DNA of 64,000 nt. Source: Desulfosudaceae bacterium. GTDB taxonomy: Bacteria > Desulfobacterota > Desulfobacteria > Desulfobacterales > Desulfosudaceae. Location: positions 320,001 through 384,000 of the forward strand of contig CAXXDV010000003.1 in NCBI GenBank assembly GCA_963674745.2, in the 5' to 3' direction. Shown in pieces: positions 9,692-36,635 of the stretch. Positions within the stretch are counted from its first letter, which is position 1. Every line of letters starts with the position of its first letter. The translations under genes were made by a program, and so were the position numbers. Under the pieces are notes generated by a model. The model was not told the DNA's origin and ran no database searches. It saw only the letters and a program-made list of their open reading frames with translations.

Positions 9692-9858
9692 TGTTCAGGC
9701 AGGTCTTCTGACTCCCGGATCATCCTGCCGACCGCGCCTTCCCGTTTTTAGCTTCAAAAACAGTGACTTTATGCGATGGCCGTCCCCGGTTACAGCGGCG
9801 GGCCCGTCTCCGACTTACACGGTGTTCCCTTTTGATCCTCCTGGGAGGAACCTGAACA
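9692..9858 (-). ncRNA. Cobalamin riboswitch 3
   Basis: P1 TGTTCAGG/CCTGAACA; AAAAGGGAA..ACGGGCCCGCCGCTGTAA..CGGGAAGGCG..GAGTCAGAAGACCTGCC. Confidence 0.93.
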
Positions 9859-9980
9859 AGTATTGGCATTATTTTTAGAACCAGGCCCCTTTTTTGTCAA
9901 GGAAAATTACGGCCGCGTTTCAGGTTGCATTCAGGTATACCCTGTCATATTATCAAAAAATACCGGCCTAAAACAATCAT

Positions 9981-15943: not shown

Positions 15944-15949
15944 GCTGTT

Positions 15950-17416: not shown

Positions 17417-17622
17417 GAATGTTGCGTCTCCGTTTTTAATTAGGGCCGAAGGAAACAATGCCGGGTTTTTCAGCCGGATTTACACACCCGTGTTCTATAT
17501 TTACAACGGGCTTTATGCCCGTGCAAAAAACCGCCGTGTATTTCAAACATGTATAAGAAACGATTGAAATATACGGCGGTATTAGTAAGTACCAGGTCCC
17601 CGGGAAAGTCCGTCTGTTCAGG

Positions 17623-19155: not shown

Positions 19156-19172
19156 GCTTTTTTCTCTCCATG

Positions 19173-19200
19173 GGAAAGGCCCCGGCCTTTCGGCCGGGGC
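19173..19200 (-). terminator. GC-rich GAAA-loop hairpin (weak terminator or mRNA stabiliser)
   Basis: GCCCCGGCC-GAAA-GGCCGGGGC followed by CTTT on minus strand. Confidence 0.45.
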
Positions 19201-19237
19201 GTGTTGTTATAAATTCCGGGAATTTCCCGGTTCATCA

Positions 19238-20998
19238 TTATTCCACGAATACCCGGTGAAGTTCCCATCCGCCTTTGCTGTTTCCATATTTGTCCGTATA
19301 GATGCTGGCGGGGTTGGCCGTACCGATATACAGGCCGGTGTCTTCATCTACGGCTACGGACCGGAATCCGTAATTGGTAAAATTCCCCAGACCATCACGG
19401 GTGACCCGTATGGCTTTTTCGTTGCTCGAGGGGAAGCGCCATAAGTCAGCGCCGTACTCATCCTGGCTGGGCGTCCAGAGCCAGGGGAAATCAAATGTGG
19501 GGAAGGAAAAAAAGTCATTGCCCCAGTAATTCTGTTGCAGATTATCCCAGTCCAGCCAGAGATAGGAATGGTCCATGGTGCCGACGAACAGTTGATCGGC
19601 ATAAACAGCCATGGTCCAGGTATAATTGTTGTAAATATTGCCAAATCCTGACTCACCGTATTTCCCGGCGACACCGCCCATATTGTTAATGCGATAGGTC
19701 CAGTAGCCGAAGAAGCTGTTTGAAACATAAACCGGCAGGGTGCGGTCACCGTAAAGCAACTCCACTTTTTTGTTTTCGCCAAATCCGGAACCACGGAAGA
19801 GTGCCGTGGCTCGCCAGGTATTGAAATAGGTCACGGGAAAATCAAAAAGCCCCATGTTGTAGTGATTGATGAATACCACCGCGGATTTGCCGTGGACATG
19901 CATGGTGCCCCAGTAAAGATATCCGTCAAAAGAGGCCATGGCGCCGACGCCGTATATTGAGGCATTCAGCGGATCAGGCTCATATTCGTCGCTCTGCCAG
20001 ACTTTCGTCCAGCGGTAATAGTCGTTGCCGCTCAGACCGCCGGCCGGTACCACCGGGCTCATCCATATCCCGGCATTGGCCGGATTCTCACCACGGCTGG
20101 GCCAGGTGCCGACAAAAACACGACCGTTGTGCTCGACGATTTCAGCCCCGCCACCGTCCAGGCCCCCTACCTCGACAAAAGAAAACGGATCGGCCTGACT
20201 GCCGGTCCAGCGCAGAACCTTACCCCCGCTGATTTCGTCAGCTACAGCGGCATAAAGGACGCCATTCATAACCAGCCACTTCCGGATATTCTGGTATTGG
20301 GGCAGGGTAGCCGACTTAAGAAAAGCGCCGGTATTGGCGTCAAATACAAACATGTTAATGCCGCTGCCAAGCGCTACTGGACCGCTCAGAAAGACCATAC
20401 CGTCAAAAGCGACCGCGGAGCGCAGGCCGAAGGTCGTCTCCAGGCGCATCCGGTCTGCAATGCCGGTCAGGGAACCGGTTTTATCCGTCAGGGACCGGGT
20501 ATTGATATCATATGTATATATTTTAGGCGGTCTGTAATCACCGAAGACATCCGGAATCGTGTTCATCATTTCAGTGGAGGGATACATGCCCTGTTGATAC
20601 TCACAGGCCCACAGATCGTTTTCATAAGGAGAAACACTGCTCAACAGATCTCCCAGTCCGATTCCACCGGTCTCATCCGTGGTATAGGAACTGAATGCAC
20701 GGACCAGGCAGAGCATGTTGGCGGCAGTGCCGAACCACAGCTTGTCTCCTGCCTTGGTCAGCCCCCAGAGATAGTTCTGATTTGCCTTGGGGCTCTCCCC
20801 CCAACCGTCGCAATCCGGTCCGGGCACATATGAATTACCAAGGCCGTTATAACATTCGTCGACTTCCGCCCTGGCCACCAGTTCATGGTCGAACGACACT
20901 TGTGGCACCTCTGGCGGATGAAATCCCATCCCGAAACCGGGCAGGGTGATCGTGAGACACATCCCCACCGCTAAAAAGATTAAAGTTAATTTTTTCAT
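19238..20998 (-). CDS. Secreted aromatic-rich, putative beta-propeller protein of unknown function
   Basis: RBS then MKKLTLIFLAVG signal peptide; repeated L(W/Y/F)xGT strand motifs (KLWFGT, RVFVGT, YLYWGT, QLFVGT, GLYIGT). Confidence 0.7.
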   Translation of the reverse strand: MKKLTLIFLAVGMCLTITLPGFGMGFHPPEVPQVSFDHELVARAEVDECYNGLGNSYVPGPDCDGWGESPKANQNYLWGLTKAGDKLWFGTAANMLCLVRAFSSYTTDETGGIGLGDLLSSVSPYENDLWACEYQQGMYPSTEMMNTIPDVFGDYRPPKIYTYDINTRSLTDKTGSLTGIADRMRLETTFGLRSAVAFDGMVFLSGPVALGSGINMFVFDANTGAFLKSATLPQYQNIRKWLVMNGVLYAAVADEISGGKVLRWTGSQADPFSFVEVGGLDGGGAEIVEHNGRVFVGTWPSRGENPANAGIWMSPVVPAGGLSGNDYYRWTKVWQSDEYEPDPLNASIYGVGAMASFDGYLYWGTMHVHGKSAVVFINHYNMGLFDFPVTYFNTWRATALFRGSGFGENKKVELLYGDRTLPVYVSNSFFGYWTYRINNMGGVAGKYGESGFGNIYNNYTWTMAVYADQLFVGTMDHSYLWLDWDNLQQNYWGNDFFSFPTFDFPWLWTPSQDEYGADLWRFPSSNEKAIRVTRDGLGNFTNYGFRSVAVDEDTGLYIGTANPASIYTDKYGNSKGGWELHRVFVE

Positions 20999-21149
20999 TT
21001 GGTCCTCTCCTCTGTTGTGTTGTTGATCCCGGGCGCCGTTCTTCCCCCAAAGCATGGCAGCCCTTATTGATATTCCCCAAAATAAAGCTGATGGATTGTT
21101 TATGTCTGTCGTTATAATTTTCGGTACAACTCCCTGAATATTTTTATCG

Positions 21150-21785
21150 TCAGATGCGGCTGCTGATCGATTTCCGTTGCCGGTATAAATTCGAATCCAC
21201 CATCGCCGCCATTTTTTCCACATCCAGCCCGTTGCCCAAAAATGAACTGACTTCTTGGGCTTTGTCCAGCGGGGCGCTCAATATGTCACTGTAATGGACA
21301 TAGATCACGTGAAAGTGGGGCTGCCCCTCGAGCCATCGGTAAGTTGCCGCCAGATATTTTTCATATTTGGCGGCCATGACTTCGTCCGGCACACCCGCTT
21401 CGGTAGTGGTGCCGCGGCGCGCCAGCATTTTTTGTTGGGATGCCAGGATCTCTTCCATATTCCGCTGCATGAAAATTACGTAGTAGAAGATGTCTTTGGG
21501 CAGCATGGGCAGCAGGGCGGATATGGCTTTGATGACCTTCCCTTTTTCCGCCATCAGCCAGGTATCGTCCGCCTCCAATTGTTTGATTTTTTCCAGCTCA
21601 TAATACCCGTTGGGATTGTCTTCATTGGCCTGGCGGATATTGTCGGTGACAACAGGCATACCACCGGCCGCGAGCATGCGCATCATCATGCTGGTGCCGG
21701 AGCGCGGCAAGCCGGAAACCAGGGTGATGGCATCGGAGACCGGCGGTATTTCATAGGGGTCAGACAATTGCGTATTGCTTTTCAA
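21150..21785 (-). CDS. Sulfotransferase family protein
   Basis: 5'-PSB loop SGLPRSGTSMMM; DNPNGYYE; FMQR..EILASQ 3'-phosphate-binding motif. Confidence 0.85.
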   Translation of the reverse strand: MKSNTQLSDPYEIPPVSDAITLVSGLPRSGTSMMMRMLAAGGMPVVTDNIRQANEDNPNGYYELEKIKQLEADDTWLMAEKGKVIKAISALLPMLPKDIFYYVIFMQRNMEEILASQQKMLARRGTTTEAGVPDEVMAAKYEKYLAATYRWLEGQPHFHVIYVHYSDILSAPLDKAQEVSSFLGNGLDVEKMAAMVDSNLYRQRKSISSRI

Positions 21786-22644
21786 CTTTATCCTCCTCGG
21801 TCACGCTCATTAAAAAATTTCTGACATGATGGACAAACTGGTCCGGCAGCCGGGCCGGGAACAGGTGACAGGCTTCAGGGACAACGGTTCTTCGGCAGTT
21901 GGTCATGTTTTCTGACAGGTAATTGCAAACAGGGATCAGCGGAGAATACTGGCCATAAAGGGCCAGGGCAACATGATTTATCTCCTTAATGCATTCTTCG
22001 GTCAACCCGGCGATCTCTTTGATGTCGGTTTTGGCGGTGGTTTCATCCAGAATTTTCAAAATAGCGTCGGCCTTGATCGACAGGCCCTTGCGCATGCCGA
22101 AATCAGACAGATCGTCAACGGCTTTACCCTCGCTCAGCTCTTTCAAACGGTATTCCAGATAGTACATATTAAATCCGTTTAAAATTTCCGGGAGTTTGGG
22201 GTTGATCCGGCGCAGCATCTCCTCGCGCTGTTTGCGATAAGGCCATTTTTCCAGATCAATGAGATGCCGCAAGGCCGGGATGTTGCCCTCGGCCAGAACC
22301 AGTCCGGAGACTTTTTTCGGGTATAGATGGGCCGTGTGCAGGGCGACCAGTCCGCCCAGGCTGTGGCCTACCAGAAAGGCCCGTTCCAGTCCGATGGCAT
22401 CCATCAATGCGGAAAGGTCTCGGGCCAGGTCAAGGGAAGTGTAACCGGTTTCAACGAATTGGCTGTATCCATGACCCCGCATATCGTAAACGGTGACCCG
22501 GAAATCCTGTTTCAGGCTGACCAGGGCTTTATTGGCATACCAGAAGGACATGTTGCCACCCATCCCATGGATGAGTATGACATCGGCCCCTTCTCCTTTT
22601 TGCAGGTAATGATGCTTGATTCCATTAACAGTAACAAACGGCAT
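21760..22644 (-). CDS. Alpha/beta hydrolase (candidate thioesterase)
   Basis: LIHG oxyanion motif, YDMRGHGYS, GHSLGG nucleophile elbow, C-terminal His (ACH). Confidence 0.85.
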   Translation of the reverse strand: MPFVTVNGIKHHYLQKGEGADVILIHGMGGNMSFWYANKALVSLKQDFRVTVYDMRGHGYSQFVETGYTSLDLARDLSALMDAIGLERAFLVGHSLGGLVALHTAHLYPKKVSGLVLAEGNIPALRHLIDLEKWPYRKQREEMLRRINPKLPEILNGFNMYYLEYRLKELSEGKAVDDLSDFGMRKGLSIKADAILKILDETTAKTDIKEIAGLTEECIKEINHVALALYGQYSPLIPVCNYLSENMTNCRRTVVPEACHLFPARLPDQFVHHVRNFLMSVTEEDKVEKQYAIV

Positions 22645-22666
22645 GAATTAACTCCTGTGACAACAT

Positions 22667-24277
22667 TTATGAGATATAACCAAGTCCTTTCAGGCGTTTC
22701 ATGATCAACGCCATATCTTCTTCATCCATTTCCGGCGCGTCGGTGGTTTGCGGCGCCATCGTCGAAGTGGATGGCCCGATAACCAGCGGCCTGGCGGTCA
22801 GGGCTTCAGGGGTCATCATTTCTACCGGCACACGCCCCTCATAATCATCGGGGACGGCCAGCCCCTGGCTGTAAAGCATGGCCGGGGCCACATCGAGAAT
22901 GTTCAAGGGGGGGAGCCACTCCCCGGCCCGGATGCCCGGTCCTCTGGCCATGAATACGCCCATGGGGTAGTGGACACCGACACACTCGGCCCTTGGTTTG
23001 ACGACTTCATCAGATTTGACCGTGGATACCAGGCCGTTATCCCGCAACTGCAGGGTCAGATCAGGTGCCATATCAGAATCGGTGCCGGCAAAAGCTTCTT
23101 CCCGCGTCCATATTTTTTTCACCACCGGTTTTCCGGTGGTCGGATGGGTAAACGAGAGGAGCTGGTCCCGGAGCCGGTTGCGCACGTTATCGTAATCTTC
23201 GGGCCGGATACCGGTATCACTGTTTTTCCCCTTCACATTGATGGTAATACCGTTGCTGCTGGGTGTGTTGACAAAGGCGGTGGTCCGGTCCCAATCCAGC
23301 AAATGGCCATGATTCTTGACCGCTTCCATAGAGACATCACCGGCGTTTTCCGAATCGGTTACCGCCCGGTCGGACCAGGTCAGGTAACCGAGTCGTTCCA
23401 GCAGGGAGTTTAAATAAAAGCATTCCTCGCTGGGACCAAACCCGTGATCGGAAACGATAAAGACGTGGCCTTCAGGTCCGGCCGTTTTGGCCAGCCGTTC
23501 GATCATGACATCCAGTTGCCGATAGTGGGCGAAAAGAATGGATTGAATCCGTTTTTCATCTTCGGACAGGCCGCTGGCATAACAGGCCGGATCAAGCAGC
23601 CGGTAAAATACATGCTGCAGCCGGTCGGTACTGTCCAGCACCAGGGCATAAAGATTACAAGGGCCATTTTCGGCCAGAAAGGACAACACCCTGACCCACT
23701 GATCATCCTTGTACGTGTGGTATTTGATCCAGTTTTCGGATTCTTCCGGAGAACAGCCGGCCACCACTTTTTCTTCCAGGCCGAAATCATGAGCGATGAT
23801 TTTAAGATCGAATCCGGGAATGGTCTTCAGCGTGTCCATCAAATCTTTGGGATGGCAGGCGTGCCGCAGATGACGCCAGGTCACAAATCCCGGAATGCTG
23901 TAGCCGGCAATTGGCAGGGGTGGGGACATGACCGGATAATTGAGGCATACCGAAGACCTTCCCAGGCGGGTCAGCAGCGACCATACGGTTTCACATTTCA
24001 ATTGTTTGGTGCTGACAAAGCGCAAAAAACGGCTGCCCGGAGATTCCGGGCGGAAAAAGTCCAGTATGCCGTGGGCTGCTGGACTGCGTCCGGTCATGAT
24101 TGTCGTCCAGGCCGGCGGGGTGATTGGCGGGATCGTGGACGCAAGTTCAGCCCGGACCCCTTCGGCGGCCAGTTGCCGCAAGAAAGGCATATGGCCGGCT
24201 TCCATCAGCGGGTCCAGGATAGAGAAGGTGGCCCCGTCAAGACCGATGACCATGGTTGTCGGTTTTTTCGAATTCAT
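22667..24277 (-). CDS. Alkaline phosphatase superfamily (type I phosphodiesterase/NPP-like) protein
   Basis: IGLDGA, STIPPITPPAW, DRLQH, VSDHGF, GVH; C-terminal RLKGLGY. Confidence 0.88.
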   Translation of the reverse strand: MNSKKPTTMVIGLDGATFSILDPLMEAGHMPFLRQLAAEGVRAELASTIPPITPPAWTTIMTGRSPAAHGILDFFRPESPGSRFLRFVSTKQLKCETVWSLLTRLGRSSVCLNYPVMSPPLPIAGYSIPGFVTWRHLRHACHPKDLMDTLKTIPGFDLKIIAHDFGLEEKVVAGCSPEESENWIKYHTYKDDQWVRVLSFLAENGPCNLYALVLDSTDRLQHVFYRLLDPACYASGLSEDEKRIQSILFAHYRQLDVMIERLAKTAGPEGHVFIVSDHGFGPSEECFYLNSLLERLGYLTWSDRAVTDSENAGDVSMEAVKNHGHLLDWDRTTAFVNTPSSNGITINVKGKNSDTGIRPEDYDNVRNRLRDQLLSFTHPTTGKPVVKKIWTREEAFAGTDSDMAPDLTLQLRDNGLVSTVKSDEVVKPRAECVGVHYPMGVFMARGPGIRAGEWLPPLNILDVAPAMLYSQGLAVPDDYEGRVPVEMMTPEALTARPLVIGPSTSTMAPQTTDAPEMDEEDMALIMKRLKGLGYIS

Positions 24278-24576
24278 TATATCGCCTCGCTTTGCGTGAC
24301 AAAATTAATATCTATAAAATCCACCAGATCAGCGACCCGGATGTCTGTTATCTCCTGCTGGGCCAGTTCCGTGAAGTATTCCGTAAATGGAAAAGTTTGA
24401 CCGTAATGCTCTTCTAAAAACTCTCCCAGAACGACCACATCAATGGACTCCATCCCCAGATCTCCCAGCAGATAGGTTTCCAGGGTGATTTCATCGGAAA
24501 ATTCCCAGTCCTCTCCGACCTTTTCAAGGGTGTCGAGGATATCGTTAAAGATGGTTGCTTTATCCGGTTTGATCAT
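24277..24576 (-). CDS. Free-standing acyl carrier protein
   Basis: Acidic 99 aa protein; DLGMESID Ppant-serine motif. Confidence 0.9.
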   Translation of the reverse strand: MIKPDKATIFNDILDTLEKVGEDWEFSDEITLETYLLGDLGMESIDVVVLGEFLEEHYGQTFPFTEYFTELAQQEITDIRVADLVDFIDINFVTQSEAI

Positions 24577-24578
24577 TT

Positions 24579-27500
24579 CTATCCAACCTCCTGTTTTCGT
24601 AGTTGTTTGATTGGCAATATCCGGGCCGATACGAAATCGTCCGTATGGGAAACGGACACGGCGACCTGCTGCTCCAGGCTGGGGACGAGGCGGCTTTGTG
24701 GTATCAGGTTGCCTCGCCGGTCGTCGTAAAGCGTGATGTCAGCAGGCGCCACGGCTCTCCCGCGGTTTTCCCGGAGAAAAACACGGACCGCGTCTTTGGC
24801 GGCAATACGTTCGCTCAACCAGCGTCCGATCAGGTCGTTCTGCCGTAGTCTTTCCCGGAAGAGCGGACGTTCGTCGGCGTTCAAATAAAGGTATCCGATG
24901 GCTTTCTGCCATATGGTCTTGTCCAATTGATCATAGCAGGGAACGGTGCACTTTATTTGACGGGCAACGGATGTTTCATCGGAAACCGTGCTGCTGATTG
25001 TATGCTGAAGGGGAAACCGGTAGAACCGGTAAAGCTCTCCGGGCAGGTCAAATCGCCGGTGCGTCCAGCCGGTAACCCGGGCCCATGCCCGGCCGCTTTC
25101 ATTAAAGATAACCAGATCTGACCGGACAAACTGATGGCTGATATCACGGATGCGCATCCGGCACCAGAGCCATTGTCCCGGTCGGGGCGGGCGGGTGAAT
25201 AAAACGATTTCCTTCACACCGGCCGGAAAGGTGATAAAGCGGTCCGATAAAGCCTCCTGTGCCCAGTATCCGGTAAGCTGGGCGCAGGCATCCAGCAGCA
25301 GCGGATTGATCAGAAAAGCCTGTCGATTATTTTCGCTGAACAAGTCATGATTGCCCGGGGCCTGAAGCAGGGCGATGATTTCATTCTGGTCTGTTCGCGT
25401 CAGGGCGTTGACGATCTGGAAACGGCGGCCATGCGTCATCAGTTTTTGAACATACATCTGCCCGGCCCTTTCCGCGGCCTGAGGTGTCGTCAGTTCGGCC
25501 GGGACCGGCTCCGGCGGCATCGTTTCGGGATAATCAGCCGCATAGAGGACCCGGGCCTCGGTCGATGGGGTTCGGCCGGCCTCACGGTTGAACAGCCTCA
25601 CGACGGCTTCGTCTTTTGCGATCAACCGGGCTTCGGCCGCCAGATGAACGCCTTTTTCCTCGTCCACTTCTATCCAGCGGTTGGCTTTCACGTCCCTGAT
25701 GCCGATCGGTGTTTTACCGGAAAACAGGAAGGCCGCGGCCTCTATCATTACTTCCATGTTCAGGGTAAGCGGGGTAATGATCAGCGGGAAAAGCCGGTTG
25801 TCGACCTGGGAAATATCACCCCCGAATGGATGATCCAGCAGAAAAACATCATGGTTCAAGTCGATATGCCGTTCGGTATGTAATCGCTGGCCGGCTTCCA
25901 GGACGGTCATCCTGTCTACCATCGGCCAGGGGGCTTTCGAGCCGGACTGATCGTTCCGGGCATTCGTCCGGTCGTGACCCGTCAGGCCCATTGTCATTTC
26001 CTTCTGCAGGTCCAGAAATCTGGCCATGGTGTCCATGTATTTTTCCATGGCGCGTGTTCTGGATTTCTTCGTCCGGTCTGCCGGTCTGGATTTTTCCGCC
26101 CGGTTTGCCGGTATGTCGCAAAACGCCGTCGGCGTAATCTTTTCGCGCCATGTCGCCAGCGTCGTTTCATCCCATTGCAGCTCCGGAAGCCCCAGGTCCA
26201 GGTCGACCAAGGCAGTTGATTTTTCAGGTACGGATTCTGACTGCTCAGGCACGACAGACCTGTCGTCCACTGTCAGAAGATCCAGCGCCAGGTCCACATG
26301 CTGGGCCGCCAGCATTCCCAGCAGATGACACAACTGCGCGGTTCCGGAACGCCGGCTGGTGTTGGCCGGGACTGTCATCACGGATTTTCCGCGCAGGATA
26401 TCATCGACAAATCCGCACAGGTTGTTGCCCGGCCCGACCTCGATGAAAATCCGGGCGCCGTCCTGAAACATGGCTTCCACCGTCTCCCGGAAGCGTAACT
26501 GGTGTAACCAGTACCCGACCATCAGTTCGAGAATGTCATTGCGTTCCCTGGGATAGAGGGCAGCAGTTACCGGGGAATAAACCGGAACGCGGGCGGATTT
26601 AATCTGCAAAGCGGAAAAAGCCGCTTCCAGAGGGCTGGCCTGATGGGTTGCCATAGGGGTATGATGCACTTCCCGGGAAGGCAGGTCCGTGAATAAGAGG
26701 CGGGATTTCTTGAGAGATGACCGCAGCCGGTCCATGGCCCCGGTTTCTCCGACCACGACCACCTGGTGCGGACAGTTATCGTTTGATATGTGAATATCCC
26801 CTGCTATATCGTCCAGCAAAGGTTTTACTTTTTTGACACTGGCGGAGACCGCCACCATGGACGTGTCGGGTGTTTCTCCCCGATCTTCATAGATGGCGGC
26901 GATCCGTTCCTGATGGCGATACAGGTCCTGCTTGTCCAGAATTCCGGAAGCAATCCAGGCGCTGTATTCGCCGGCGCTGTGGCCGACTATCATGTCCGGG
27001 GCAACACCAAAGCGATACAACAGGTCGTTCATGGCCAGGCTTGATGACAGTATGGCCTGCAAACCGCTGTCCACTTTCCAGAATTCGGCTTCCAGCGAAT
27101 CATACTCTTCCCGGGACAGCAGGGTAGCGGGAAAAATAAACTGGCTGGGCAGGTACCGGCTTTTCTTGTTGCGGTCGGCAACCGTCATGTTTATTTCGTC
27201 AAAGGCGTCCCGGACCGGCGGGAAATGCAGGCACAGATCCATCATCATGTTGGTGTAGGCGGCCCCTTCGCCCGGAAACATGAAAGCAACTTTGCCTGTT
27301 TTAGCCAGTGGTTTTTCGAAGTAATAAATTCCCTTGATATCTTTTATTTTTCTGCAATTGGGCGCCTTCAGGCGGGTCACGGCATATTCCAGTTTTCTGG
27401 CCAGGTCATCTGCGGACTCGGCAATGACGGCCAGTCGTTGTGCTTCAGGGGTAAAATTTCTCAGCAGCGTCCGGGACAGGGCTCTCCAGTCAAATCCTTC

Positions 27501-29114
27501 TTTTTCCTGTATCTTCGTCAAAACCTGCCGGCAGGCCGTTACCAGGCCGGCCCGGGAAACATCGGCAAAAAGGAACAGGGCGACATCCCAGTCCGGACCG
27601 CGTGATGTCATCTTCCGGCAGGCAGCAGCCACCGGTTCGGTGTTTCCGGTTGTCGTCGATTTCGGGGCTTTTTTGGTCGGTTCCCGGTATTCTTCAAGCA
27701 CCACGTGGGCGTTGACGCCGCCGAAGCCAAAGGCGTTGACGCCCGCCCGGCGGGGTATGTACGGGGAGATACGGATCCATGGACGGGTTTCGGTGTTGAT
27801 ATAAAAAGGCGTATTTTCCAGATTGAATTTCGGGTTGGGTGTATCGCAATTCAATGTCGGCGGCAGAACTTTATGATGAAGCGCCAGAACCGTTTTGATC
27901 AGGCTGGCGATACCCGCCGCCGGCATGGCATGGCCGATCATGGACTTGACCGCTCCCAGCGCGCAGTGACGGGCGGCACCGTCGGCCTTTTTCCCGAACA
28001 CCGTGGCCAGGGACTGGATTTCCGCGGCATCGCCAACACTGGTGGCCGTGCCGTGGGCCTCGATCAGCCCGATCGTTCTGGGGGGGATCCCTGATGCCTG
28101 GTAAGCGCGTTCCAGAGCCAGTATCTCTCCCTCAACCCGCGGTGCGGCCACGCTGATGCCCCGGCCGTCGCTGGAACTGCCCACCCCGCGAATCACGGCA
28201 AAAATGCGGTTGCCGTCCCTTTTCGCGTCGGCCGTCCGTTTCAGAACGACGATACCGACGCCTTCGCCCGGCAGCATGCCGTCGGCTTCTGTGTCAAAAG
28301 GGCGGATTCGCCCCTGTTTGGACATGGCGCCCAGGGTACAGAAAACATTCAGAAAGGGGATGTTGTTGAAAATATGGACGCCGCCCGCCAGTGCCAGGTC
28401 GCTGCGTCCGGACAGAATCGCGGAAACAGCCGCGTCCACGGCAAACAAAGATGAGGCGCAGGCCGCGTCGATGATGTAGTTCGGCCCCATCAGGCCCAGC
28501 CGGTTGGCCACCCGGCCGGCGGTAATGTTGGGCATGACCGATGGTGCCGTTTCCGCTTCAAACGGTTTTAACGAGATCAGCAGGTTGTCCTTGAGTTCGT
28601 CGCCGGCACCGGGCGGCAGGTCCGGATGCAGTTGTTCCACCAGGCGCACGGTCTGGTCGACGATGAAGGTGCGCTGCAACAGGTTGAAGGCACCGGTACT
28701 CAAATAACTGCCTCTTCCCAGAATAAATGCCGTATTCTCATGGTCCGGGCCACCCGGTGCGATGCCGGCATGGCGCAGGGCCTGGTCCGCGGTTTTTAAT
28801 ACCAGAAATTGATCGGGTTCGCCGCCATTGACCGCCTTGGGCATGATACCGAACTCGGCCGCATTGAAACGAAAGGGGGAGTCCAGGTATCCGCCCCGTT
28901 TGGCATATACTTTGTCCCGGTCGTTAAAATCCGGATCGTAGAAACGCTCGGTGTCCCATCGGTCCGTTGGGGCATCGGTTACGGCATCGACCTTATGAAT
29001 GATATTGTGCCAGAACGTTTCCAGGTCGGGTGCCCGGGGAAAACGGCAGGCCATACCGATCACAGCCACGGTATCGTCAATATTTTCGGGTTTTATCTGA
29101 TAATCTGAATTCAT
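24579..29114 (-). CDS. Type I PKS: KS-AT-DH plus partial PPTase-like C-terminus
   Basis: KS DAACASS/HGTAT/GHAM; AT GHSAG; DH LLDHPFG...LLDACAQ; terminal RIAAKDAVR...VSVSHT. Confidence 0.9.
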   Translation of the reverse strand: MNSDYQIKPENIDDTVAVIGMACRFPRAPDLETFWHNIIHKVDAVTDAPTDRWDTERFYDPDFNDRDKVYAKRGGYLDSPFRFNAAEFGIMPKAVNGGEPDQFLVLKTADQALRHAGIAPGGPDHENTAFILGRGSYLSTGAFNLLQRTFIVDQTVRLVEQLHPDLPPGAGDELKDNLLISLKPFEAETAPSVMPNITAGRVANRLGLMGPNYIIDAACASSLFAVDAAVSAILSGRSDLALAGGVHIFNNIPFLNVFCTLGAMSKQGRIRPFDTEADGMLPGEGVGIVVLKRTADAKRDGNRIFAVIRGVGSSSDGRGISVAAPRVEGEILALERAYQASGIPPRTIGLIEAHGTATSVGDAAEIQSLATVFGKKADGAARHCALGAVKSMIGHAMPAAGIASLIKTVLALHHKVLPPTLNCDTPNPKFNLENTPFYINTETRPWIRISPYIPRRAGVNAFGFGGVNAHVVLEEYREPTKKAPKSTTTGNTEPVAAACRKMTSRGPDWDVALFLFADVSRAGLVTACRQVLTKIQEKEGFDWRALSRTLLRNFTPEAQRLAVIAESADDLARKLEYAVTRLKAPNCRKIKDIKGIYYFEKPLAKTGKVAFMFPGEGAAYTNMMMDLCLHFPPVRDAFDEINMTVADRNKKSRYLPSQFIFPATLLSREEYDSLEAEFWKVDSGLQAILSSSLAMNDLLYRFGVAPDMIVGHSAGEYSAWIASGILDKQDLYRHQERIAAIYEDRGETPDTSMVAVSASVKKVKPLLDDIAGDIHISNDNCPHQVVVVGETGAMDRLRSSLKKSRLLFTDLPSREVHHTPMATHQASPLEAAFSALQIKSARVPVYSPVTAALYPRERNDILELMVGYWLHQLRFRETVEAMFQDGARIFIEVGPGNNLCGFVDDILRGKSVMTVPANTSRRSGTAQLCHLLGMLAAQHVDLALDLLTVDDRSVVPEQSESVPEKSTALVDLDLGLPELQWDETTLATWREKITPTAFCDIPANRAEKSRPADRTKKSRTRAMEKYMDTMARFLDLQKEMTMGLTGHDRTNARNDQSGSKAPWPMVDRMTVLEAGQRLHTERHIDLNHDVFLLDHPFGGDISQVDNRLFPLIITPLTLNMEVMIEAAAFLFSGKTPIGIRDVKANRWIEVDEEKGVHLAAEARLIAKDEAVVRLFNREAGRTPSTEARVLYAADYPETMPPEPVPAELTTPQAAERAGQMYVQKLMTHGRRFQIVNALTRTDQNEIIALLQAPGNHDLFSENNRQAFLINPLLLDACAQLTGYWAQEALSDRFITFPAGVKEIVLFTRPPRPGQWLWCRMRIRDISHQFVRSDLVIFNESGRAWARVTGWTHRRFDLPGELYRFYRFPLQHTISSTVSDETSVARQIKCTVPCYDQLDKTIWQKAIGYLYLNADERPLFRERLRQNDLIGRWLSERIAAKDAVRVFLRENRGRAVAPADITLYDDRRGNLIPQSRLVPSLEQQVAVSVSHTDDFVSARILPIKQLRKQEVG

Positions 29115-29123
29115 TATAGCCTT

Positions 29124-32100
29124 TTATTTTACGGCCAGGCGGTTCAAGGATTCACTGCCGATAATTTCCAGGCCTTCCATCATGCCGGTTAGCGAGCCTT
29201 CAGGTGTGAGAAAAAACACATCCGCCGACTTGATCCCGTTGTTATCCGGGGTCCGGACCCGCACTTCGCAACGCAGATCGTCCCCGTTGCGGGGGGCGTC
29301 AAAACGGAAGAATTTTTTCAGACGGGTCGGCAGGGGCGTGGCATTCATCCGGTTCCGCATCCACAAAGAAACCAGCTGAAGACCGCTGTCAATGATCAGC
29401 GGATCGATCAGCCAGTCATAATCATCGGAGGCAGCGGTCCTGGGCAGGTAAGCCTTTGGACGGGAGGCTTTCAGCCGGCCGATGATGCCGTCTTTTCCAA
29501 TGGTTTCCACATGCTGAATGCCGTGCCACAAGGGGCCGTGAAAGAGCTGCTTTTCATAAAGTTCAGAGACGGACAGGGTGAACGGCTCCGGGTCGGAAAT
29601 ATCCAGGGAAATATGCCGTCCAGGGGCCGGTTTTTCCCGAAGCAGCTCAACGTTAGCCCGGTAATAGATGCGTCGTTTATCGCGGCTGTCCCGGATCTGA
29701 ATATCCAGCGTGATCTGCCGGTTTGTGCTTATTACCGGATTCACTACGATGTTAATGGTTTCAAATCCGTTTTTCAGCACAACGCCCTTGAGCACATGAA
29801 AATTACTAAAAGTGCTGAGGAAATAGTCCGGATACCGGAAGGCCACGGCTTCGGCCATTATTTCCATGGCCATGGCCATGGGAAGTACCGGATAGCCGTC
29901 CAGTTTGTGGTCCTGGAGATAGTAATCATGATCGGTGTCCAGGCGGTGAACCAGTTCCACGTTTCCGTTTCCGCTGGGATAAAAATTGGAATTAGAAGAG
30001 AGCAGGGGCAGAGCTATCGTTCGGCTGTCGGCTGTCAGGGCTCTTTTTCGGCTGTCCCATCCGCCGTAAATGACTTCCGTGGCGGTTGCCGGTCCGTACA
30101 GAAGTTCGTTGATGAAGTGATTCACGCCCTCGTCCCGGGGAATCAGCGAAATGCCGGCGGCACTGAATTTTTCCTTGAGTTCCGCCGACACCATGCCCCG
30201 GCTTTCCCAGGGGCCCCAGATGAATGAGACGATCCGTCCCGGCCAGACCCGGTTCAGGTAAAGGGCGGTCTTGTTGTAGACTTCGTTGGCCGCGCCGTAG
30301 TCAGACTGACCGGCATTGCCGAATCTTCCGGCCACCGAAGAAAAAAGGGCCAGAAAACGAAGGCTGCCGGCCTGCAGGGCCTGGCTGAGAATAAAGAGGC
30401 TGTCCGCCTTGGTATCGAAGACCCGGTCAAATGATGTGATATCCTTGTCTTTGATCGGTTTGTCTTCAATCCGGCCGGCGCCGTGAATAACGCCGTCGAT
30501 TCCGCCATACGTTTCATTGATTGTATCGATCAAGCGGGAAAAACCTTCCGCGTCGGTGACGTCTCTTTGCAGATAATGGGCCTCAGATCCGAGTTCGCCT
30601 AACCGGTCCAGCGTTTCCCGGATTTCGCGTTGGGCGACCAGACGGTGATAGGCATTTTCAAGATCGGCCGGTCGGACTTTTTCACTTTGTGATTTCAGTT
30701 GTTCCGCCAGTATCGCTTTCAGTTGTCTTTCATCCTCGATGCCGATGGTTTCCGGATTCTCTTCCGCCAGCGGTGTTTTACCCACCAGCAGCAGCGTCGG
30801 CTGAAACCGTCTGGCCAGTTCCAGGGCTATGGCGGACGTAATCCCCCGGGCGCCGCCGGTGACCAGCAGGCGCGAACCGGGGCCAATCGTTATCTTCGGC
30901 GGATGGTTTGTTATCAACGGTTCTTCCAGAATGGCCAGAACCAGGCGGCAACCGTCCTGATATCCGACTTCGATATCCGCGGAGGGGGTCAGCAGTTCGT
31001 TGGTAATCTGGGTGGCAATGGTTTGTGGCGTGTCTTTGGGATCGTTATCCACAACCCGTATATTGAGGCCCGGCATTTCTTCGGCCAGGGCCTTTAAAAA
31101 ACCGCTGACGCCGCCGCCGACCGGCGAAAAATCCGGTTCGCCGGGTTTTTCGATTTCGACGACGCTGGCAAAAGTACCGCCCATGGCCGTAGCTGCAACA
31201 ATCCCGGAGACACCCGCCGGATTCGCCGAGGTCAGGTCCGTGGCCAGCAGTTTGGTGAGATAGAAGAGGCTTTTGATCATTGTCGCCGCTTCTTTTTTCC
31301 AGGTGGCCAGATCCGGGAAGGGGAAAGCACTGCCCGCTGCCAGAGGTGCCAGATGGAGCAGGGCGGTAACTGGGCCGTGGGTTTCCCGGATGTCATCCAC
31401 CGTTTCGGCCAGCCGGTCAAAATTTGTGAAATCCGCGCAATATACGGCCGTGTTGAAGTTTTCCGCGGTCAGATCCGTTGCCGGCAGATCATGCTCGAGA
31501 ATGATGACATTATAGCCCAGAGGTTCAAGCCCGGCCACAACCGCCCGGGCCAGCGGATCCCCCGGTATCATGGTCACCAGCACGGTGCCCTCGGCGGGAA
31601 ATGATTCCGGACTGACAATCAGGCCGCGTTTTTTGGCATAGAGGGTATATCGCCTGACCGGTGGTATATGGAGCGGGTCCGGCCGCTCTTCCGACGGTAA
31701 CGTGCCCGGCACCGAGGGGATTATCTGCTGTTCCATCCAGTCAGTCAAATCACCGAGACACGCGGCGTCCCCGGGAAACGGCCGGTCGGCTGCCGTCTTT
31801 GCGCCGGGTATGTCGGATTTAAACACTTCTGTCCATTTTGCGATAACCGTTTCTGTCAGCGCCTTGTCCATATTCAGATCGTTTTTCAGCCTAAGGTCCG
31901 GTTCCAGTATTTCCGCAGGATAGCCGGTATGCGATTCAACGATTTGATATAATACGTTCCTGACTGTCTTCTGGTCAGCGGTCAGGGAGGCCGTCGACGG
32001 CGTGACGGTCTCCGCTTTCCCAACAGCGGACGCTTTGTCGTCGATATTTTCTGTTTTTAACTGGTCCCCGATGACGGATTCCAGGCCGATTACAATATCG

Positions 32101-35100
32101 TTCAGCGTGACGCTTCTCCCCAGGCGTTCCCGGCCGGCATCGGTCATCTGGATATGGTGTTCCGCCAGTTTCTCCTCAAAGTGGGCCAACACCTCCATCC
32201 GTTTGATGGAATCAATACCCAGTTCCGCGTCAATCTCCTGATCCAGTTCCAGCATATCGGCGGGATAGCCGGTCAGGTCGCCGACAATGGAGATCAGGGT
32301 GGCTTTGATGTCAAACGGGGCGACGGTTGTGACGGCCGGGGCTGATGCGGCCACCTTACCGGCCGGTGGCCCCTGGGCTTCCGATACCAGGGCCTGCAGG
32401 CCGTCCAGCAGGTCCGCCAGCGTATGACTGGCCACCAGGCTTTCCATTCTGCTTTCCTGAAGCGTGACGCCATGCTGCTCCAGGGCGGTCTCCAACTCCA
32501 TCATGGCCTGCATCCGTTTGATGGAATCGATGCCCAGGTCGGCGTCAATTTCCTGGTCCAGTTCCAGCATTTCCACGGGGTAGCCGGTGCAGTCGCTGAC
32601 GATTTCCAGCAGAATGGTTTTCACATCAAGGGATGGGATGCGTTCCTCTTTTTCCGGAACGGTTGTTTTCGTTGCCGAAAGGTCCGGGGAAGCGACCGGT
32701 GGAACACTGAAGTCCGGTGGCCGGTCGGAAATGGGATGGTTTATATCCGGTTGAACCATTTCCGGCATGATTCCGTTTACTGAAACAGGGCCGATGGCGG
32801 TCTCGTATCCCCGGCATTCCCCGAGCCCGGCGCGGTCTGACGATCCGCCGTTCAGCCAGGCTGTCATAACCGCTTTTTGTGTGTCCAGAAACTGACTCAT
32901 TAAATCCTGAAATCTGGCAATCATCATATCATCCGTGGTCGCCGGATTCCTGTTTGTCTCTATGGGCACGGACTGGCCCTGTTGATCGGTTGGTGAAGGC
33001 ATGGTCTGGCTGTTCCACTCCCATTCAAAGGTATTAATGTTATTAAAATCCGTCGGGTTTTCGGTGTTCCCGGTTTCTGTCTCTTGCGCTTCATCGACAA
33101 AACCGACCGGTCGCGGAACAACGCGTTCCGGGGGCGGTTGGTCGGCGGGGCGAACCGTCCCGCTGCCGATGATAAAGCGGGCTTCAGGAATATCGGATTT
33201 TTCGTCAGAAAGCGTATCCTGCCGGTCAAATCGCCGGCAATCACGCCCCGCGAACAGCCGCTCCAGTTGCAACTCAACGCCGGCCACAAATATGACCGCC
33301 AGGGCATGCTGCAGTTCTGTTACGTCCGCCCTGCCTTTTTTGTTTGTGGCTACAGCCTGGTGTGGTTTGTCTTTAAGAATGGCTTTGATCAAATTGGTCA
33401 GAACGCTGTTGGCGCCGACCTCTATGAAAATCCGAGCGCCGGCTTCATACATGGCTGAAATTTCCGCTGAGAAGCGAACCGGGCTGACCAGTTGTCCGGC
33501 CATCAGTTTTTTGATTTCCGGCCCGTTTTCGGGGAAAGGGGCGGCAATGGTATTTGAAAAAACCGGTCTTTGAGGGACGCCAAAATCAATATTTTCCAGG
33601 AAATTTTCCAGTTTTGACTTCGCGGCGTCAACGAGGGGGCTATGAAAGGCGCATGCCACGGGAATTGTTTTGCATGGTATTTTCTCTTGTTCGAGTTTTT
33701 CCATAGCCGCTTTGACCCCGGCCCGGCTGCCGCTGATGACGGTCTGTGACGGTGCATTCAGGTTGGCGATCCAGACCCGATCCAGGTCTTTGAGCAGTGG
33801 GATGACTTCCGACTCAGATGCTTTGACCGCGGCCATGGTGCCGGGCTCTGACCCGGACGATTCGAGGATAAAACGCCCCCGGGCTTCGGAAATCCGGGCC
33901 AGGTCTTTTTCTGCCAGAACCCCTGCCGCAAACAGGGCGGGATATTCGCCGTAACTGTGACCGGCCGTCATATCGGGAACGACGCCCAGAGTCGTCAGCA
34001 ACTCATGCATAGCCGTGTCCACCGCGCCCATGGCAGCCTGGGTAACGTCGGCCCGGGTCAAGGCGGATTCATCGGCTTTTTTTTCTTTGTCGGTAAAATA
34101 AATCGGTGGATTAATAATTCGGCTCAGACCGGCGGGAAAAGCTTTTGCAAGATGCCGGTCGAAACGTTCCAGCGTTTCCCGGACCAGGGGAAAGGACAGG
34201 GCCAGATCGTTGAGCATACCGGGATACTGGGATCCCTGACCGGGATAAACAAAGGCGATTTTGCCTGTTTCCGAAACCGGCCTGTAGCTGAAATAGACAC
34301 CCGGGATGTGTCGGTCCCGGGTGTCTTGTTCGGCCAACAACATCAGGGCTGTCTTGATCTTGTTTTTCAGATCGTCTGTGGAGGAAGCTACGACGGCCAG
34401 GCGGACATTGTTCTCCGCCGATGGGGTCACGGCCATGGTGTAGGCCAGGTCTTTCAGGGGTGTTTCCGGATATCGGGCCAGCTGATTTTCCAGGTATTGG
34501 ATACGGCCGGTAACCGCCCCGGTTGTTTTCCCCTGAAAAACAAAAAGTTCCGATTCCCATTCCGGCTTGAAAGCCGTTTTTCCGGCGGATCCTGTCGGCC
34601 CGGAATATTCCTCCAGTACCGCGTGGAAGTTTGTTCCGCCGAAGCCGAAGGCACTGACGCCGGCCCGCCGGGGCCGGCCGGCGGTGGCAAACCAGGGCCG
34701 GGCCCGGGTGTTCAGGTATAAGGGATTGTCTTCACCGGTCAGATCGGGGACCGGTTTTTCCAGGCCTGCCGTCGGCGGGATCACCTTGTGGTGCAGGGCC
34801 AGAACGGTTTTGACCAGTGAAGCGATACCGGCCGCGCATTTGGTATGGCCGATCATTGATTTGATCGACCCTACGGCACAGCTGCGGGGGGGCATATCCG
34901 TCCCCGAGAAAAAGGCGTGCAGGGCGGCGGCTTCGGATTTGTCACCTGCGACTGTACTGGTGCCATGGGCTTCGATCAAAGAGATGGTTGCCGGTTCGAT
35001 AGCGGCCCTTTCATAGGCCCGGGCCAGGGCCGCGATCTGTCCCTCCGGCTTGGGAACGGTCAACCCCTTGCCGCGCCCGTCACTGGAAGCCCCGACGGAC

Positions 35101-35981
35101 TTAATAACGGCGTAAATCGGGTCGCCATCTCTTTCGGCGTCGGCCAGGCGCTTTAAGATAACCGTGGCCACCCCCTCTCCCAGAACAATACCATCGGCGT
35201 CCTGATCAAAGGGGATGCTTTTGCCGGTCGCGGACAGGGCGCCGACTTTGGAAAAACAGGTGTAGGCATAGGGGCTCATCAGCGTGTCCGTACCACCCAC
35301 GATGACCATATCGCTCTCCCCGGTCGCAAGCTCCAGGATACCCGTTCGCAGGGCGGCCAGGGCCGAGGCACAGGCCGCGTCAATGGTACAATTGGTGCCG
35401 CCGAGATTGAACCGGTCGGCGATCCGGCCGGCGGCAATATTGGTGATGATGCCGGTAAAGGCGTCTTCGCGCCATTCAGGGACCGCCGTACCGAGGCCGG
35501 ATAGAATATGGTCGGCACTTTCCCCGAAAAACCGGGGGACTTGCGATCGGAAACTGTATTGCTGACCCAGATCACCTTCGCCGGCGCCTGCGCCGACGAA
35601 CACGGATGTCCGGCTCCGGTTAAATTCGCGGTCCATGTAACCGGCGTCGTCCAGGGCCAGCCGGGTGCTTTCCAGGACCAGCAGCTGTGCTGTTTCGATG
35701 AATTTTAAAGCCTTGGGCGGGATGCCGAATTGAAGGGGGTTAAAAGGAATATCCGGCAGAAATGCGCCCCACTTGGATACAATACGGTCTTTCCCAGTGG
35801 GGGCGGTGTCGAAATAATACCGACTGTCCCATCTTTGAGGCGGGATCTCCGTAATCGATACAGTCCCTTTGACAATATTCTGCCAATAGGACTTTAAATC
35901 CGGTGCATCCGGAAAAAATCCGGCCATTCCGATAACAGCTATGTCAGTTACGGCACTGACATTTTGATCCGCGTGTGTCAT
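29124..35981 (-). CDS. PfaA/HglE-like iterative type I PKS: KS-AT-ACP-ACP-(degenerate ACP)-KR-DH
   Basis: KS DAACASA/HGTST/GHTK; AT GHSYG..AFHS; two LGIDSIK ACPs; KR TGGARGIT..YGAAN; DH HKLDGYPVLP..DSGLQ. Confidence 0.93.
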   Translation of the reverse strand: MTHADQNVSAVTDIAVIGMAGFFPDAPDLKSYWQNIVKGTVSITEIPPQRWDSRYYFDTAPTGKDRIVSKWGAFLPDIPFNPLQFGIPPKALKFIETAQLLVLESTRLALDDAGYMDREFNRSRTSVFVGAGAGEGDLGQQYSFRSQVPRFFGESADHILSGLGTAVPEWREDAFTGIITNIAAGRIADRFNLGGTNCTIDAACASALAALRTGILELATGESDMVIVGGTDTLMSPYAYTCFSKVGALSATGKSIPFDQDADGIVLGEGVATVILKRLADAERDGDPIYAVIKSVGASSDGRGKGLTVPKPEGQIAALARAYERAAIEPATISLIEAHGTSTVAGDKSEAAALHAFFSGTDMPPRSCAVGSIKSMIGHTKCAAGIASLVKTVLALHHKVIPPTAGLEKPVPDLTGEDNPLYLNTRARPWFATAGRPRRAGVSAFGFGGTNFHAVLEEYSGPTGSAGKTAFKPEWESELFVFQGKTTGAVTGRIQYLENQLARYPETPLKDLAYTMAVTPSAENNVRLAVVASSTDDLKNKIKTALMLLAEQDTRDRHIPGVYFSYRPVSETGKIAFVYPGQGSQYPGMLNDLALSFPLVRETLERFDRHLAKAFPAGLSRIINPPIYFTDKEKKADESALTRADVTQAAMGAVDTAMHELLTTLGVVPDMTAGHSYGEYPALFAAGVLAEKDLARISEARGRFILESSGSEPGTMAAVKASESEVIPLLKDLDRVWIANLNAPSQTVISGSRAGVKAAMEKLEQEKIPCKTIPVACAFHSPLVDAAKSKLENFLENIDFGVPQRPVFSNTIAAPFPENGPEIKKLMAGQLVSPVRFSAEISAMYEAGARIFIEVGANSVLTNLIKAILKDKPHQAVATNKKGRADVTELQHALAVIFVAGVELQLERLFAGRDCRRFDRQDTLSDEKSDIPEARFIIGSGTVRPADQPPPERVVPRPVGFVDEAQETETGNTENPTDFNNINTFEWEWNSQTMPSPTDQQGQSVPIETNRNPATTDDMMIARFQDLMSQFLDTQKAVMTAWLNGGSSDRAGLGECRGYETAIGPVSVNGIMPEMVQPDINHPISDRPPDFSVPPVASPDLSATKTTVPEKEERIPSLDVKTILLEIVSDCTGYPVEMLELDQEIDADLGIDSIKRMQAMMELETALEQHGVTLQESRMESLVASHTLADLLDGLQALVSEAQGPPAGKVAASAPAVTTVAPFDIKATLISIVGDLTGYPADMLELDQEIDAELGIDSIKRMEVLAHFEEKLAEHHIQMTDAGRERLGRSVTLNDIVIGLESVIGDQLKTENIDDKASAVGKAETVTPSTASLTADQKTVRNVLYQIVESHTGYPAEILEPDLRLKNDLNMDKALTETVIAKWTEVFKSDIPGAKTAADRPFPGDAACLGDLTDWMEQQIIPSVPGTLPSEERPDPLHIPPVRRYTLYAKKRGLIVSPESFPAEGTVLVTMIPGDPLARAVVAGLEPLGYNVIILEHDLPATDLTAENFNTAVYCADFTNFDRLAETVDDIRETHGPVTALLHLAPLAAGSAFPFPDLATWKKEAATMIKSLFYLTKLLATDLTSANPAGVSGIVAATAMGGTFASVVEIEKPGEPDFSPVGGGVSGFLKALAEEMPGLNIRVVDNDPKDTPQTIATQITNELLTPSADIEVGYQDGCRLVLAILEEPLITNHPPKITIGPGSRLLVTGGARGITSAIALELARRFQPTLLLVGKTPLAEENPETIGIEDERQLKAILAEQLKSQSEKVRPADLENAYHRLVAQREIRETLDRLGELGSEAHYLQRDVTDAEGFSRLIDTINETYGGIDGVIHGAGRIEDKPIKDKDITSFDRVFDTKADSLFILSQALQAGSLRFLALFSSVAGRFGNAGQSDYGAANEVYNKTALYLNRVWPGRIVSFIWGPWESRGMVSAELKEKFSAAGISLIPRDEGVNHFINELLYGPATATEVIYGGWDSRKRALTADSRTIALPLLSSNSNFYPSGNGNVELVHRLDTDHDYYLQDHKLDGYPVLPMAMAMEIMAEAVAFRYPDYFLSTFSNFHVLKGVVLKNGFETINIVVNPVISTNRQITLDIQIRDSRDKRRIYYRANVELLREKPAPGRHISLDISDPEPFTLSVSELYEKQLFHGPLWHGIQHVETIGKDGIIGRLKASRPKAYLPRTAASDDYDWLIDPLIIDSGLQLVSLWMRNRMNATPLPTRLKKFFRFDAPRNGDDLRCEVRVRTPDNNGIKSADVFFLTPEGSLTGMMEGLEIIGSESLNRLAVK

Positions 35982-36194
35982 TTACCCCCCCCAACTTCTC
36001 ATGAGAGTATTGATGATAACTGTGGATAAAACTGTTGCTTGCATATGCCGATATCAAGTGGTCATTTTTTTAAGAGCGCTTTTGATACCGAACTATTTTT
36101 AAGAAATCCCCTTTTTCTCCCCCATGGCGATCGATGACAGTATCATCAACCCCATTCTCCGATATGAACAAAAACCATAAAAAACGAACGGTTA

Positions 36195-36243
36195 AATAAA
36201 ACAAAAAGCCGGGCTGCCCGTTTTTAATCAGGGCAACCCGGCT
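36195..36243 (-). terminator. Intrinsic terminator overlapping the 3' end of the riboswitch aptamer
   Basis: AGCCGGGTTGCCC / GGGCAGCCCGGCT stem followed by TTTTGTTTTATTT on minus strand. Confidence 0.8.
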
Positions 36244-36310
36244 GTCTTTTGTTTAAAGATCCTGGGCTTTCCGTCATCCGGTCATCCGGATGTTGGCTTT
36301 TTCCTTAATT
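36225..36310 (-). ncRNA. c-di-GMP-I (GEMM-I)-like riboswitch upstream of the PKS operon
   Basis: Minus strand AAAGCCAA-CATCCGG-ATGA-CCGGATG-ACGG-AAAGCCCAGGATCT...AGACAGCCGGGTTGCC matches the GEMM-I P2/P3 layout. Confidence 0.8.
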
Positions 36311-36635
36311 TTGTACATTTGTACAGTTGTTATCTTTTTTGCAAACAGCGTTATTGTTAACGATAACGCTGTTCCGCCTGATAACGATTTTTTAATTAAG
36401 TGTATTAAAAATCATTTGTCAAGAAAAAAATTGGACTGCCCAACATATTTTAGTTTTTCATATAACTGTTTCGATTTAAAAAGAAAATTGTTTTTCTTTT
36501 CCTTTTCAGGCACATCCTTCAAGGCTTTAAATCCGAACCGCACAGCCTTGTTCATGCGCTTTTATGGCGTGGCACGGGTCGGGACAGATGTCGAATAACA
36601 TTATGGAAAACAGTCGCTGATGATGTTTTCGAATC

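Follow-up and report, generated by a model that had tools for sequence, protein, structure and literature searches.

A probable c-di-GMP class I riboswitch with predicted transcriptional ON logic ahead of a PfaA-type polyketide/secondary-lipid synthase operon

Introduction

GEMM RNAs are common in the delta-proteobacteria, and those without a tetraloop receptor in which a terminator competes with the second hairpin are the closest described counterparts of the leader analysed here. The family description (Weinberg et al. 2007, PMC1950547) gives two adjacent hairpins connected by an AAA linker, with only two exceptions among 322 RNAs. The terminal loop of the first hairpin is "almost always" GNRA, a feature that is near-universal rather than absolute, and a tetraloop receptor is present in almost 50% of the RNAs. 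GYRA loops are usually found in members that lack the receptor, and two extra A bulges occur in about half of the members without one. In 78 of the 322 RNAs a terminator overlaps the second hairpin, for which an ON model was drawn (Figure 2B of PMC1950547).

In the Vc2 aptamer of Vibrio cholerae (3IRW/3MXH), G20 and C92 are ligand-contact bases (PMC6140456) and an inter-helix tertiary pair between C44 and G83 is essential for binding (PMC11705072, section 18). The base at position 20 distinguishes the ligands: G is the c-di-GMP state, and riboswitches for cGAMP carry A (PMC6140456). Bc2 of B. thuringiensis is a proven c-di-GMP ON switch that works by antitermination with strong default repression (PMC4933901).

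Here we describe a GEMM-I element before a polyketide synthase operon in a 64-kb stretch of DNA, which as a whole is referred to as the window. Full-text literature searches, with the papers returned judged partly by title and abstract, gave none that connects a polyketide or PfaA-type synthase with a c-di-GMP riboswitch; in one paper that came up (PMC11626248), the riboswitch term occurs in the reference list only. The words "polyketide", "fatty acid" and "lipid" are absent from the main text of the GEMM paper PMC1950547, and "polyketide" is absent from its searchable supplements.

Results

Layout of the leader

The leader and the genes that follow it are on the minus strand, which is also the strand of all sequence strings in an earlier note on this DNA that named none. 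The main features are as follows.

36394..36422, minus strand: promoter-like site found by eye, TTGACA (36422-36417), a 17-nt spacer and TTAATT (36399-36394)
36344..36373, no strand assigned: 30-bp palindrome, downstream of the promoter-like site and upstream of the aptamer, with 15-nt arms that are 93% complementary
36229..36307, minus strand: c-di-GMP-I (GEMM-I) aptamer, from the match to RF01051
36198..36243, minus strand: intrinsic terminator, from sequence and folding; termination is predicted
35982..36197, minus strand: spacer of about 216 nt from the terminator to PKS1, with a Shine-Dalgarno-like run of Gs immediately ahead of the ATG, from the sequence
29124..35981, minus strand: PKS1, 2285 aa, KS-AT-ACP-KR-DH, PfaA family, from Pfam and NCBIfam
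11595..29114, minus strand: the remaining co-directional cluster, from ORFs and protein families

The promoter-like site is a match by eye only, which counts against the reading of the leader as an ON switch. It is unlisted in the consensus promoter scan, its second hexamer having no A at position 2; the scan gave only a weaker site at 36474-36447 (minus strand). The palindrome is unique in the window, was matched in none of 100 shuffles and forms an 11-bp hairpin in the minimum free energy (MFE) fold of the leader. It could be an operator for an unnamed regulator, or a 5′ RNA hairpin, possibly a stabilising one. A tandem TTTGTACA TTTGTACA repeat at 36310-36325 abuts the 5′ end of the aptamer. 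As a 16-mer with at most 3 mismatches it was matched in 30 of 100 shuffles, and by this chance standard it may be meaningless.

From the end of the aptamer to the start of PKS1 there are 247 nt on the same strand, without an ORF of at least 120 aa in between. The distance from the end of the U-tract to the start codon at 35981 is 217 nt, close to the earlier figure of about 215 nt, and the consensus scan gave no minus-strand promoter-like site within the spacer 35982..36197.

Family assignment of the aptamer

When the 64-kb window was compared with all 4227 Rfam families, RF01051 (c-di-GMP-I) matched at 36307..36229 on the minus strand with 48.9 bits and an E-value of 1.6e-6, covering model positions 1-87 of 87. 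The gathering score of the family is 35, and the covariance model thus bears out the earlier naming of the element as a GEMM-I riboswitch. The score is nevertheless a modest one and counts against a working switch. It is the single GEMM match in the window; the remaining three Rfam matches are distant cobalamin riboswitches. For a 123-nt stretch the folding energy is −47.6 kcal/mol, while shuffled versions average −26.1 kcal/mol (z −6.64), and none of 200 shuffles was as stable.

The variant family c-di-GMP-I-GGC (RF03167) ranked top by E-value in a scan of the small region, yet its 46.4 bits fall below its gathering score of 59. In its diagnostic column the consensus is G (GCGAA), whereas RF01051 has A (GCAAA), and the base here is A (36270). 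Because RF03167 is sub-threshold and the diagnostic column is A, the element is, as judged from its sequence, a canonical-pocket c-di-GMP-I aptamer with a reduced periphery. Its parts, all on the minus strand, are listed below.

36305-36303 / 36232-36230: short closing helix, A-G-G / C-C-U, with the GG/CC pairs taken from the RF03167 alignment
36297: G20-equivalent G, the last base of an A-rich joining strand (Rfam alignments)
36296-36271: first hairpin (RF01051 alignment)
36296-95 / 36272-71: 2-bp stem CC / GG (RF01051 alignment)
within the first hairpin: internal loop AAC / GAC, followed by a 6-bp stem AUCCGG / CCGGAU (alignment and fold)
36285-82: terminal loop AUGA of the first hairpin (RF01051 alignment)
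36270-68: AAA linker (RF01051 alignment)
36268-36235: second hairpin with loop AAACA and A bulges at 36263 and 36260 (alignment)
36234-33: G-C after the second hairpin, of which 36233 is the C92 equivalent (alignment)

In the RF01051 alignment the 2-bp CC/GG stem and the AUGA loop stand where the earlier note had seen them, and the G that it had placed before the stem is the unpaired 36297, aligned to Vc2 G20. The ligand-contact columns are canonical at high posterior probability: G 36297 corresponds to G20, A 36270 to A47 and C 36233 to C92, the Vc2 numbers being placed on the Rfam columns by inference from the consensus rather than by a computed alignment to the Vc2 sequence. We take A47 of Vc2 to be an intercalating ligand-contact base. 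Both partners of the C44-G83 pair are also in the aligned columns, as C 36273 within GAC and G 36242 within AG, so that Vc2 and this aptamer have the same bases at the equivalents of G20, A47, C92, C44 and G83 when compared through the Rfam columns. The layout of the first hairpin (2 bp, 3-nt loop, 6 bp) and the AAA linker agree with the family description in PMC1950547.

G 36297 argues for c-di-GMP over 3′,3′-cGAMP as the predicted ligand. The rule invoked earlier, that G at this position favours c-di-GMP and A favours 3′,3′-cGAMP, agrees with PMC6140456. The Geobacter GEMM-Ib 3′,3′-cGAMP riboswitches described there share the fold and differ in having A at the G20 equivalent.

Departures from the family norm

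Outside the pocket, the aptamer departs from the family at several positions. The AUGA loop lacks the GNRA feature, being a single base away from GUGA, a GYRA loop. No tetraloop receptor is present in the second hairpin, where the receptor columns are deleted in the RF01051 alignment; two A bulges take its place, in agreement with the receptor-less pattern described in PMC1950547. The 2-bp stem is C-G/C-G rather than the G-C/C-G of the family, a change that Infernal flags as a compensated pair, and non-standard pairs are flagged in the second hairpin of the RF01051 alignment. The third base of the internal loop is C where A is conserved, and it is blank in the RF01051 match line. In Vc2 this A (A25) pairs with G42 (PMC11705072 / PMC6140456); the C found here could lengthen the stem by one Watson-Crick pair, as it does in the RNAfold MFE structure, where a C-G pair forms at the third internal-loop position.

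The aptamer is thus like the receptor-less GEMM RNAs in its two adjacent hairpins, AAA linker and extra A bulges in the second hairpin, and unlike them, as described in PMC1950547, in the AUGA loop, the C-G/C-G stem and the third internal-loop base C. In Vc2 a GAAA tetraloop docks into a receptor of the 11-nt type, with A33 stacked on A62 (PMC6140456, PMC11705072); the present RNA has neither that loop nor the receptor.

The terminator and its competition with the aptamer

The terminator stem pairs AGCCGGGUUGCCC (36243-36231) with GGGCAGCCCGGCU (36219-36207) in 13 pairs, of which 10 are G-C and one is G-U, across an 11-nt loop (36230-36220); the 3′ arm is followed by the U-tract UUUUUGUUUU, which runs to 36198. 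A simple terminator scanner did not list it, since the loop exceeds the scanner limit of 8. The scanner did report a "terminator-like" site at 36275-36292 on the plus strand, which is the complement of the first hairpin with its A-rich 5′ flank; no plus-strand gene ends at that site.

The 5′ arm of the terminator holds the G83 equivalent, the entire 3′ strand of the second hairpin, the C92 equivalent and the 3′ strand of the closing helix. The segment 36243-36231 therefore serves both folds, as had been claimed of the aptamer 3′ strand, and the aptamer itself would be the antiterminator. The aptamer fold has an energy between −21.1 kcal/mol (given structure) and −25.7 kcal/mol (MFE of the aptamer-only transcript, with the same three-way junction). 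The terminator hairpin alone reaches −27.9 kcal/mol, the terminator with the first hairpin −37.8 kcal/mol, and the full-length MFE structure, which includes the terminator, −47.6 kcal/mol. By these calculations the terminator state is favoured over the aptamer state by about 22 kcal/mol, which makes OFF the predicted default.

The order of folding was followed in a series of transcript lengths from a presumed start at 36387. All 8 pairs of the first hairpin form at every length, and all 7 pairs of the second hairpin form for 3′ ends from 36232 to 36216. The terminator has 12 of its 13 pairs at 3′ end 36208 and all 13 from 36204, which places the takeover between 36216 and 36208. The mean pair probability of the second hairpin is 0.95 before the terminator 3′ arm has been made and 0.003 in the full leader, where that of the terminator is 0.98; the folds are in effect mutually exclusive, as the earlier note had argued. 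Exclusivity together with termination as the default gives the leader a predicted ON logic.

This arrangement is like that of the terminator-type GEMM RNAs of PMC1950547, in which the 5′ arm of the terminator overlaps the 3′ strand of the second hairpin and an ON response is predicted. Like Bc2, the leader has a c-di-GMP-I aptamer followed by an intrinsic terminator, with the ON logic here being predicted. Bc2, from a Firmicute, controls a collagen adhesion protein and has its terminator directly beside the ORF (PMC4933901); here, in a relative of the Desulfobacteraceae, 217 nt separate the terminator from the PfaA-type synthase operon.

The PKS cluster

PKS1 matches TIGR02813 (omega_3_PfaA) with 1194.8 bits, above the cut-off of 1010.1. 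The genes that follow it, all on the minus strand, are listed below.

24579-29114: PKS2 (KS, AT-like, DH)
22667-24277: type I phosphodiesterase-family protein
21760-22644: alpha/beta hydrolase
21150-21785: sulfotransferase
19238-21223: 661-aa protein with no Pfam or NCBIfam family above threshold
17623-19155: acyltransferase
15950-17458: RND efflux outer-membrane subunit
14744-15943: RND efflux adaptor
11595-14747: RND efflux pump

With the PfaA cut-off passed and the genes co-directional, the label "PKS operon" given earlier is right, and the locus can be described more closely as a PUFA-synthase-like secondary-lipid cluster. A 300-nt gap lies within it at 24278-24578. The common strand and the short gaps suggest that the 24-kb cluster may be one transcript. 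No PfaD-type enoyl reductase was found among the cluster ORFs scanned. A likeness of the sulfotransferase and the alpha/beta hydrolase to the ST-TE pair of CurM and the olefin synthases found no support: a PDB sequence search returned only weak aryl-sulfotransferase matches (E 0.003), generic esterases and epoxide hydrolases.

Elsewhere in the window, the three cobalamin riboswitches (94-121 bits) are on the minus strand at 55-256, 3787-3974 and 9681-9870. One precedes a fused periplasmic-binding/CbiZ gene and a set of binding-protein, FecCD and ABC transporter genes (9557-4711), another precedes a TonB-dependent receptor (3672-1612), and the third points off the window start. No Pfam or NCBIfam family scored above threshold for two plus-strand ORFs, 38841-39356 (171 aa) and 39359-40726 (455 aa). 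A plus-strand ORF at 52373-53269 combines cyclic-nucleotide-binding and rhodanese domains and adjoins genes for a MauE/DoxX protein and a thioredoxin-fold protein. GGDEF, EAL and PilZ domains were found in none of the window ORFs scanned.

Related loci

Scanned with residues 1-600 of PKS1, species-representative genomes yielded 80 loci. Identity is highest in two Thermodesulfobacteriota MAGs (70% and 69%), followed by two Desulfobacteraceae MAGs (66% and 65%); the others are near 50%, in Planctomycetota and other phyla. A search of protein representatives with the same residues brought up nothing but multi-module megasynthases (4000-8000 aa), whose ranking followed the summed KS scores, and was of no use for orthologues.

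A GEMM RNA was found by Rfam in none of 22 related loci (L001-L007, then eight more, then seven of the Planctomycetota type), the four closest included. Nor was the riboswitch found in any of the 80 loci with R1, a single-sequence covariance model built from the window stretch aligned to itself, which may miss divergent GEMM RNAs. A match of R1 within the window itself (8959-9033, 13.6 bits, E 8.4) is noise. Since no second copy was found, the structure has no support from covariation. With 0 of 22 loci by Rfam and 0 of 80 by R1, the link between riboswitch and operon looks lineage-specific. In an alignment of the 240 nt before the start codon with those of L001-L004, mean column identity was 48%, with no meaningful conservation; by this comparison the leader in the window and the leaders of L001-L004 are not homologous.

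The PKS1-PKS2 pair is kept in L001 and L003. Upstream of the PfaA-type pair, L001 (3685-9527) and L002 (5635-9665) have genes for LpxA-like, LpxI, GFO/IDH/MocA oxidoreductase, LpxB and MsbA-like ABC exporter proteins, with the pair following directly on the same strand; in L003 this place is taken by an MFS transporter and an unknown protein. The lipid A gene neighbours in L001 and L002, the two closest relatives, hint that the product of the PfaA-type synthase is an envelope lipid. The leaders in the two Desulfobacteraceae MAGs (L003, 9810-9870; L004, 560-640) contain a repeated motif of about 15 nt that ends in GAGTCTA(A/C)T beside TTGACA. It looks like an operator and would be a different solution to the control of the same operon. 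A Planctomycetaceae MAG (L007, 2143-2188, minus strand) carries an unrelated Acido-Lenti-1 RNA (43.9 bits, gathering score 37).

Discussion

Ligand-stabilised antitermination is the best reading of this leader, with c-di-GMP as ligand, its binding and the resulting read-through all predicted. Transcription probably starts near 36387, and the aptamer would be made first. Bound c-di-GMP would hold the second hairpin, the C92 equivalent and the short closing helix; the 3′ strand so held would be unavailable as the 5′ arm of the terminator, and polymerase would continue into PKS1. Without ligand, the 13-bp terminator, which is much more stable, would capture the shared strand as soon as its 3′ arm has been made, some 25 nt further on, and termination would follow near 36200. 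We infer both the start and the extent of the transcript from the features described above.

The earlier proposal of an ON switch thus gains support from the exclusivity of the folds and from the order of folding, ligand-dependent read-through being the presumed consequence. We consider it probable that the leader is a c-di-GMP class I riboswitch and transcriptional ON switch of the PfaA-type polyketide/secondary-lipid synthase operon. Our confidence goes no higher because the element is a single instance and departs from the family at conserved positions.

A decayed or very weak aptamer is unlikely, though the likeliest of the alternatives; the leader would then be mostly a constitutive attenuator, or be controlled otherwise, and the effect of c-di-GMP would be small. 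Such decay would fit the non-GNRA loop, the A-to-C change in the internal loop and the non-standard pairs of the second hairpin, and no orthologous copy was found in the related loci with either Rfam or R1. The strong palindrome between the promoter-like site and the aptamer points the same way, as a protein bound there is a possible alternative control. Several points tell against decay, however: the bases of the three ligand-contact columns and of the C44/G83 pair are all retained, the aptamer fold is the MFE structure of the nascent RNA, and about half of the family does without a receptor anyway (PMC1950547). Moreover, with a dead aptamer before a terminator of 0.98 pair probability, a 24-kb cluster would be silenced, an arrangement that selection would not be expected to maintain.

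The missing receptor also bears on kinetics. In Vc2 the contact between tetraloop and receptor accelerates folding (PMC11705072), and rapid folding would be a requirement for a kinetic switch whose window is about 25 nt; this counts against the ON-switch reading. On a more novel reading, to which we assign a small probability, this receptor-less, non-GNRA aptamer, with a flipped pair adjacent to the pocket and the A-to-C change in the internal loop, would be functional but prefer a different ligand, or bind with an affinity that is much weaker and exchanges faster. If so, PfaA-type secondary lipid synthesis and RND export would be directly under a cyclic-dinucleotide signal, a class of output of which the literature searches gave no example. 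The aptamer is in any case a natural test of how much the tetraloop contact weighs in a kinetically driven switch.

It is similarly improbable that the riboswitch and terminator are real and PKS1 is transcribed mainly from its own promoter in the spacer, the switch then governing a short leader RNA or a minor share of the transcripts. The spacer is long, AT-rich and unconserved with the relatives. These points are offset by the scan, in which 36200-35982 has no minus-strand promoter-like site, by the position of PKS1 with no other gene between it and the switch, and by the family at large, in which GEMM was 5′-regulatory to the next gene in 297 of 309 annotated cases (PMC1950547).

We give a slightly smaller chance to a different or additional ligand, for example 3′,3′-cGAMP or another dinucleotide as in the Geobacter GEMM-Ib variants. 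The nearest relatives are Thermodesulfobacteriota and Desulfobacteraceae MAGs, and cGAMP signalling occurs in some formerly delta-proteobacterial lineages, which would suit such a ligand, as would the flipped pair adjoining the pocket and the differing peripheral contacts. The position-20 equivalent is nonetheless G and not A, and wild-type Vc2, with G20, binds cGAMP at about 10 μM against picomolar c-di-GMP (PMC6140456); RF03167 remains at 46.4 bits against a threshold of 59, with A in the distinguishing column. A chance match devoid of RNA function, which a single instance of modest score might suggest, is very improbable given an E-value of 1.6e-6 over the window and all families, a score above the curated threshold, the correct orientation and position before the operon, and a precisely overlapping terminator.

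Under the preferred reading, a c-di-GMP ON switch, the switch design is already known, and what is new is the class of gene controlled and the minimal non-GNRA aptamer. In related anaerobes, many GEMM-Ib riboswitches are terminator-type ON switches. If the switch works, high c-di-GMP would directly activate a 24-kb cluster that encodes a PUFA-synthase-like PKS pair, RND efflux and, as tailoring enzymes, the sulfotransferase, the hydrolase and the phosphodiesterase-family protein. A relative of the sulfate-reducing Desulfobacteraceae would then make and export a specialised lipid in response to a sessile or biofilm signal.
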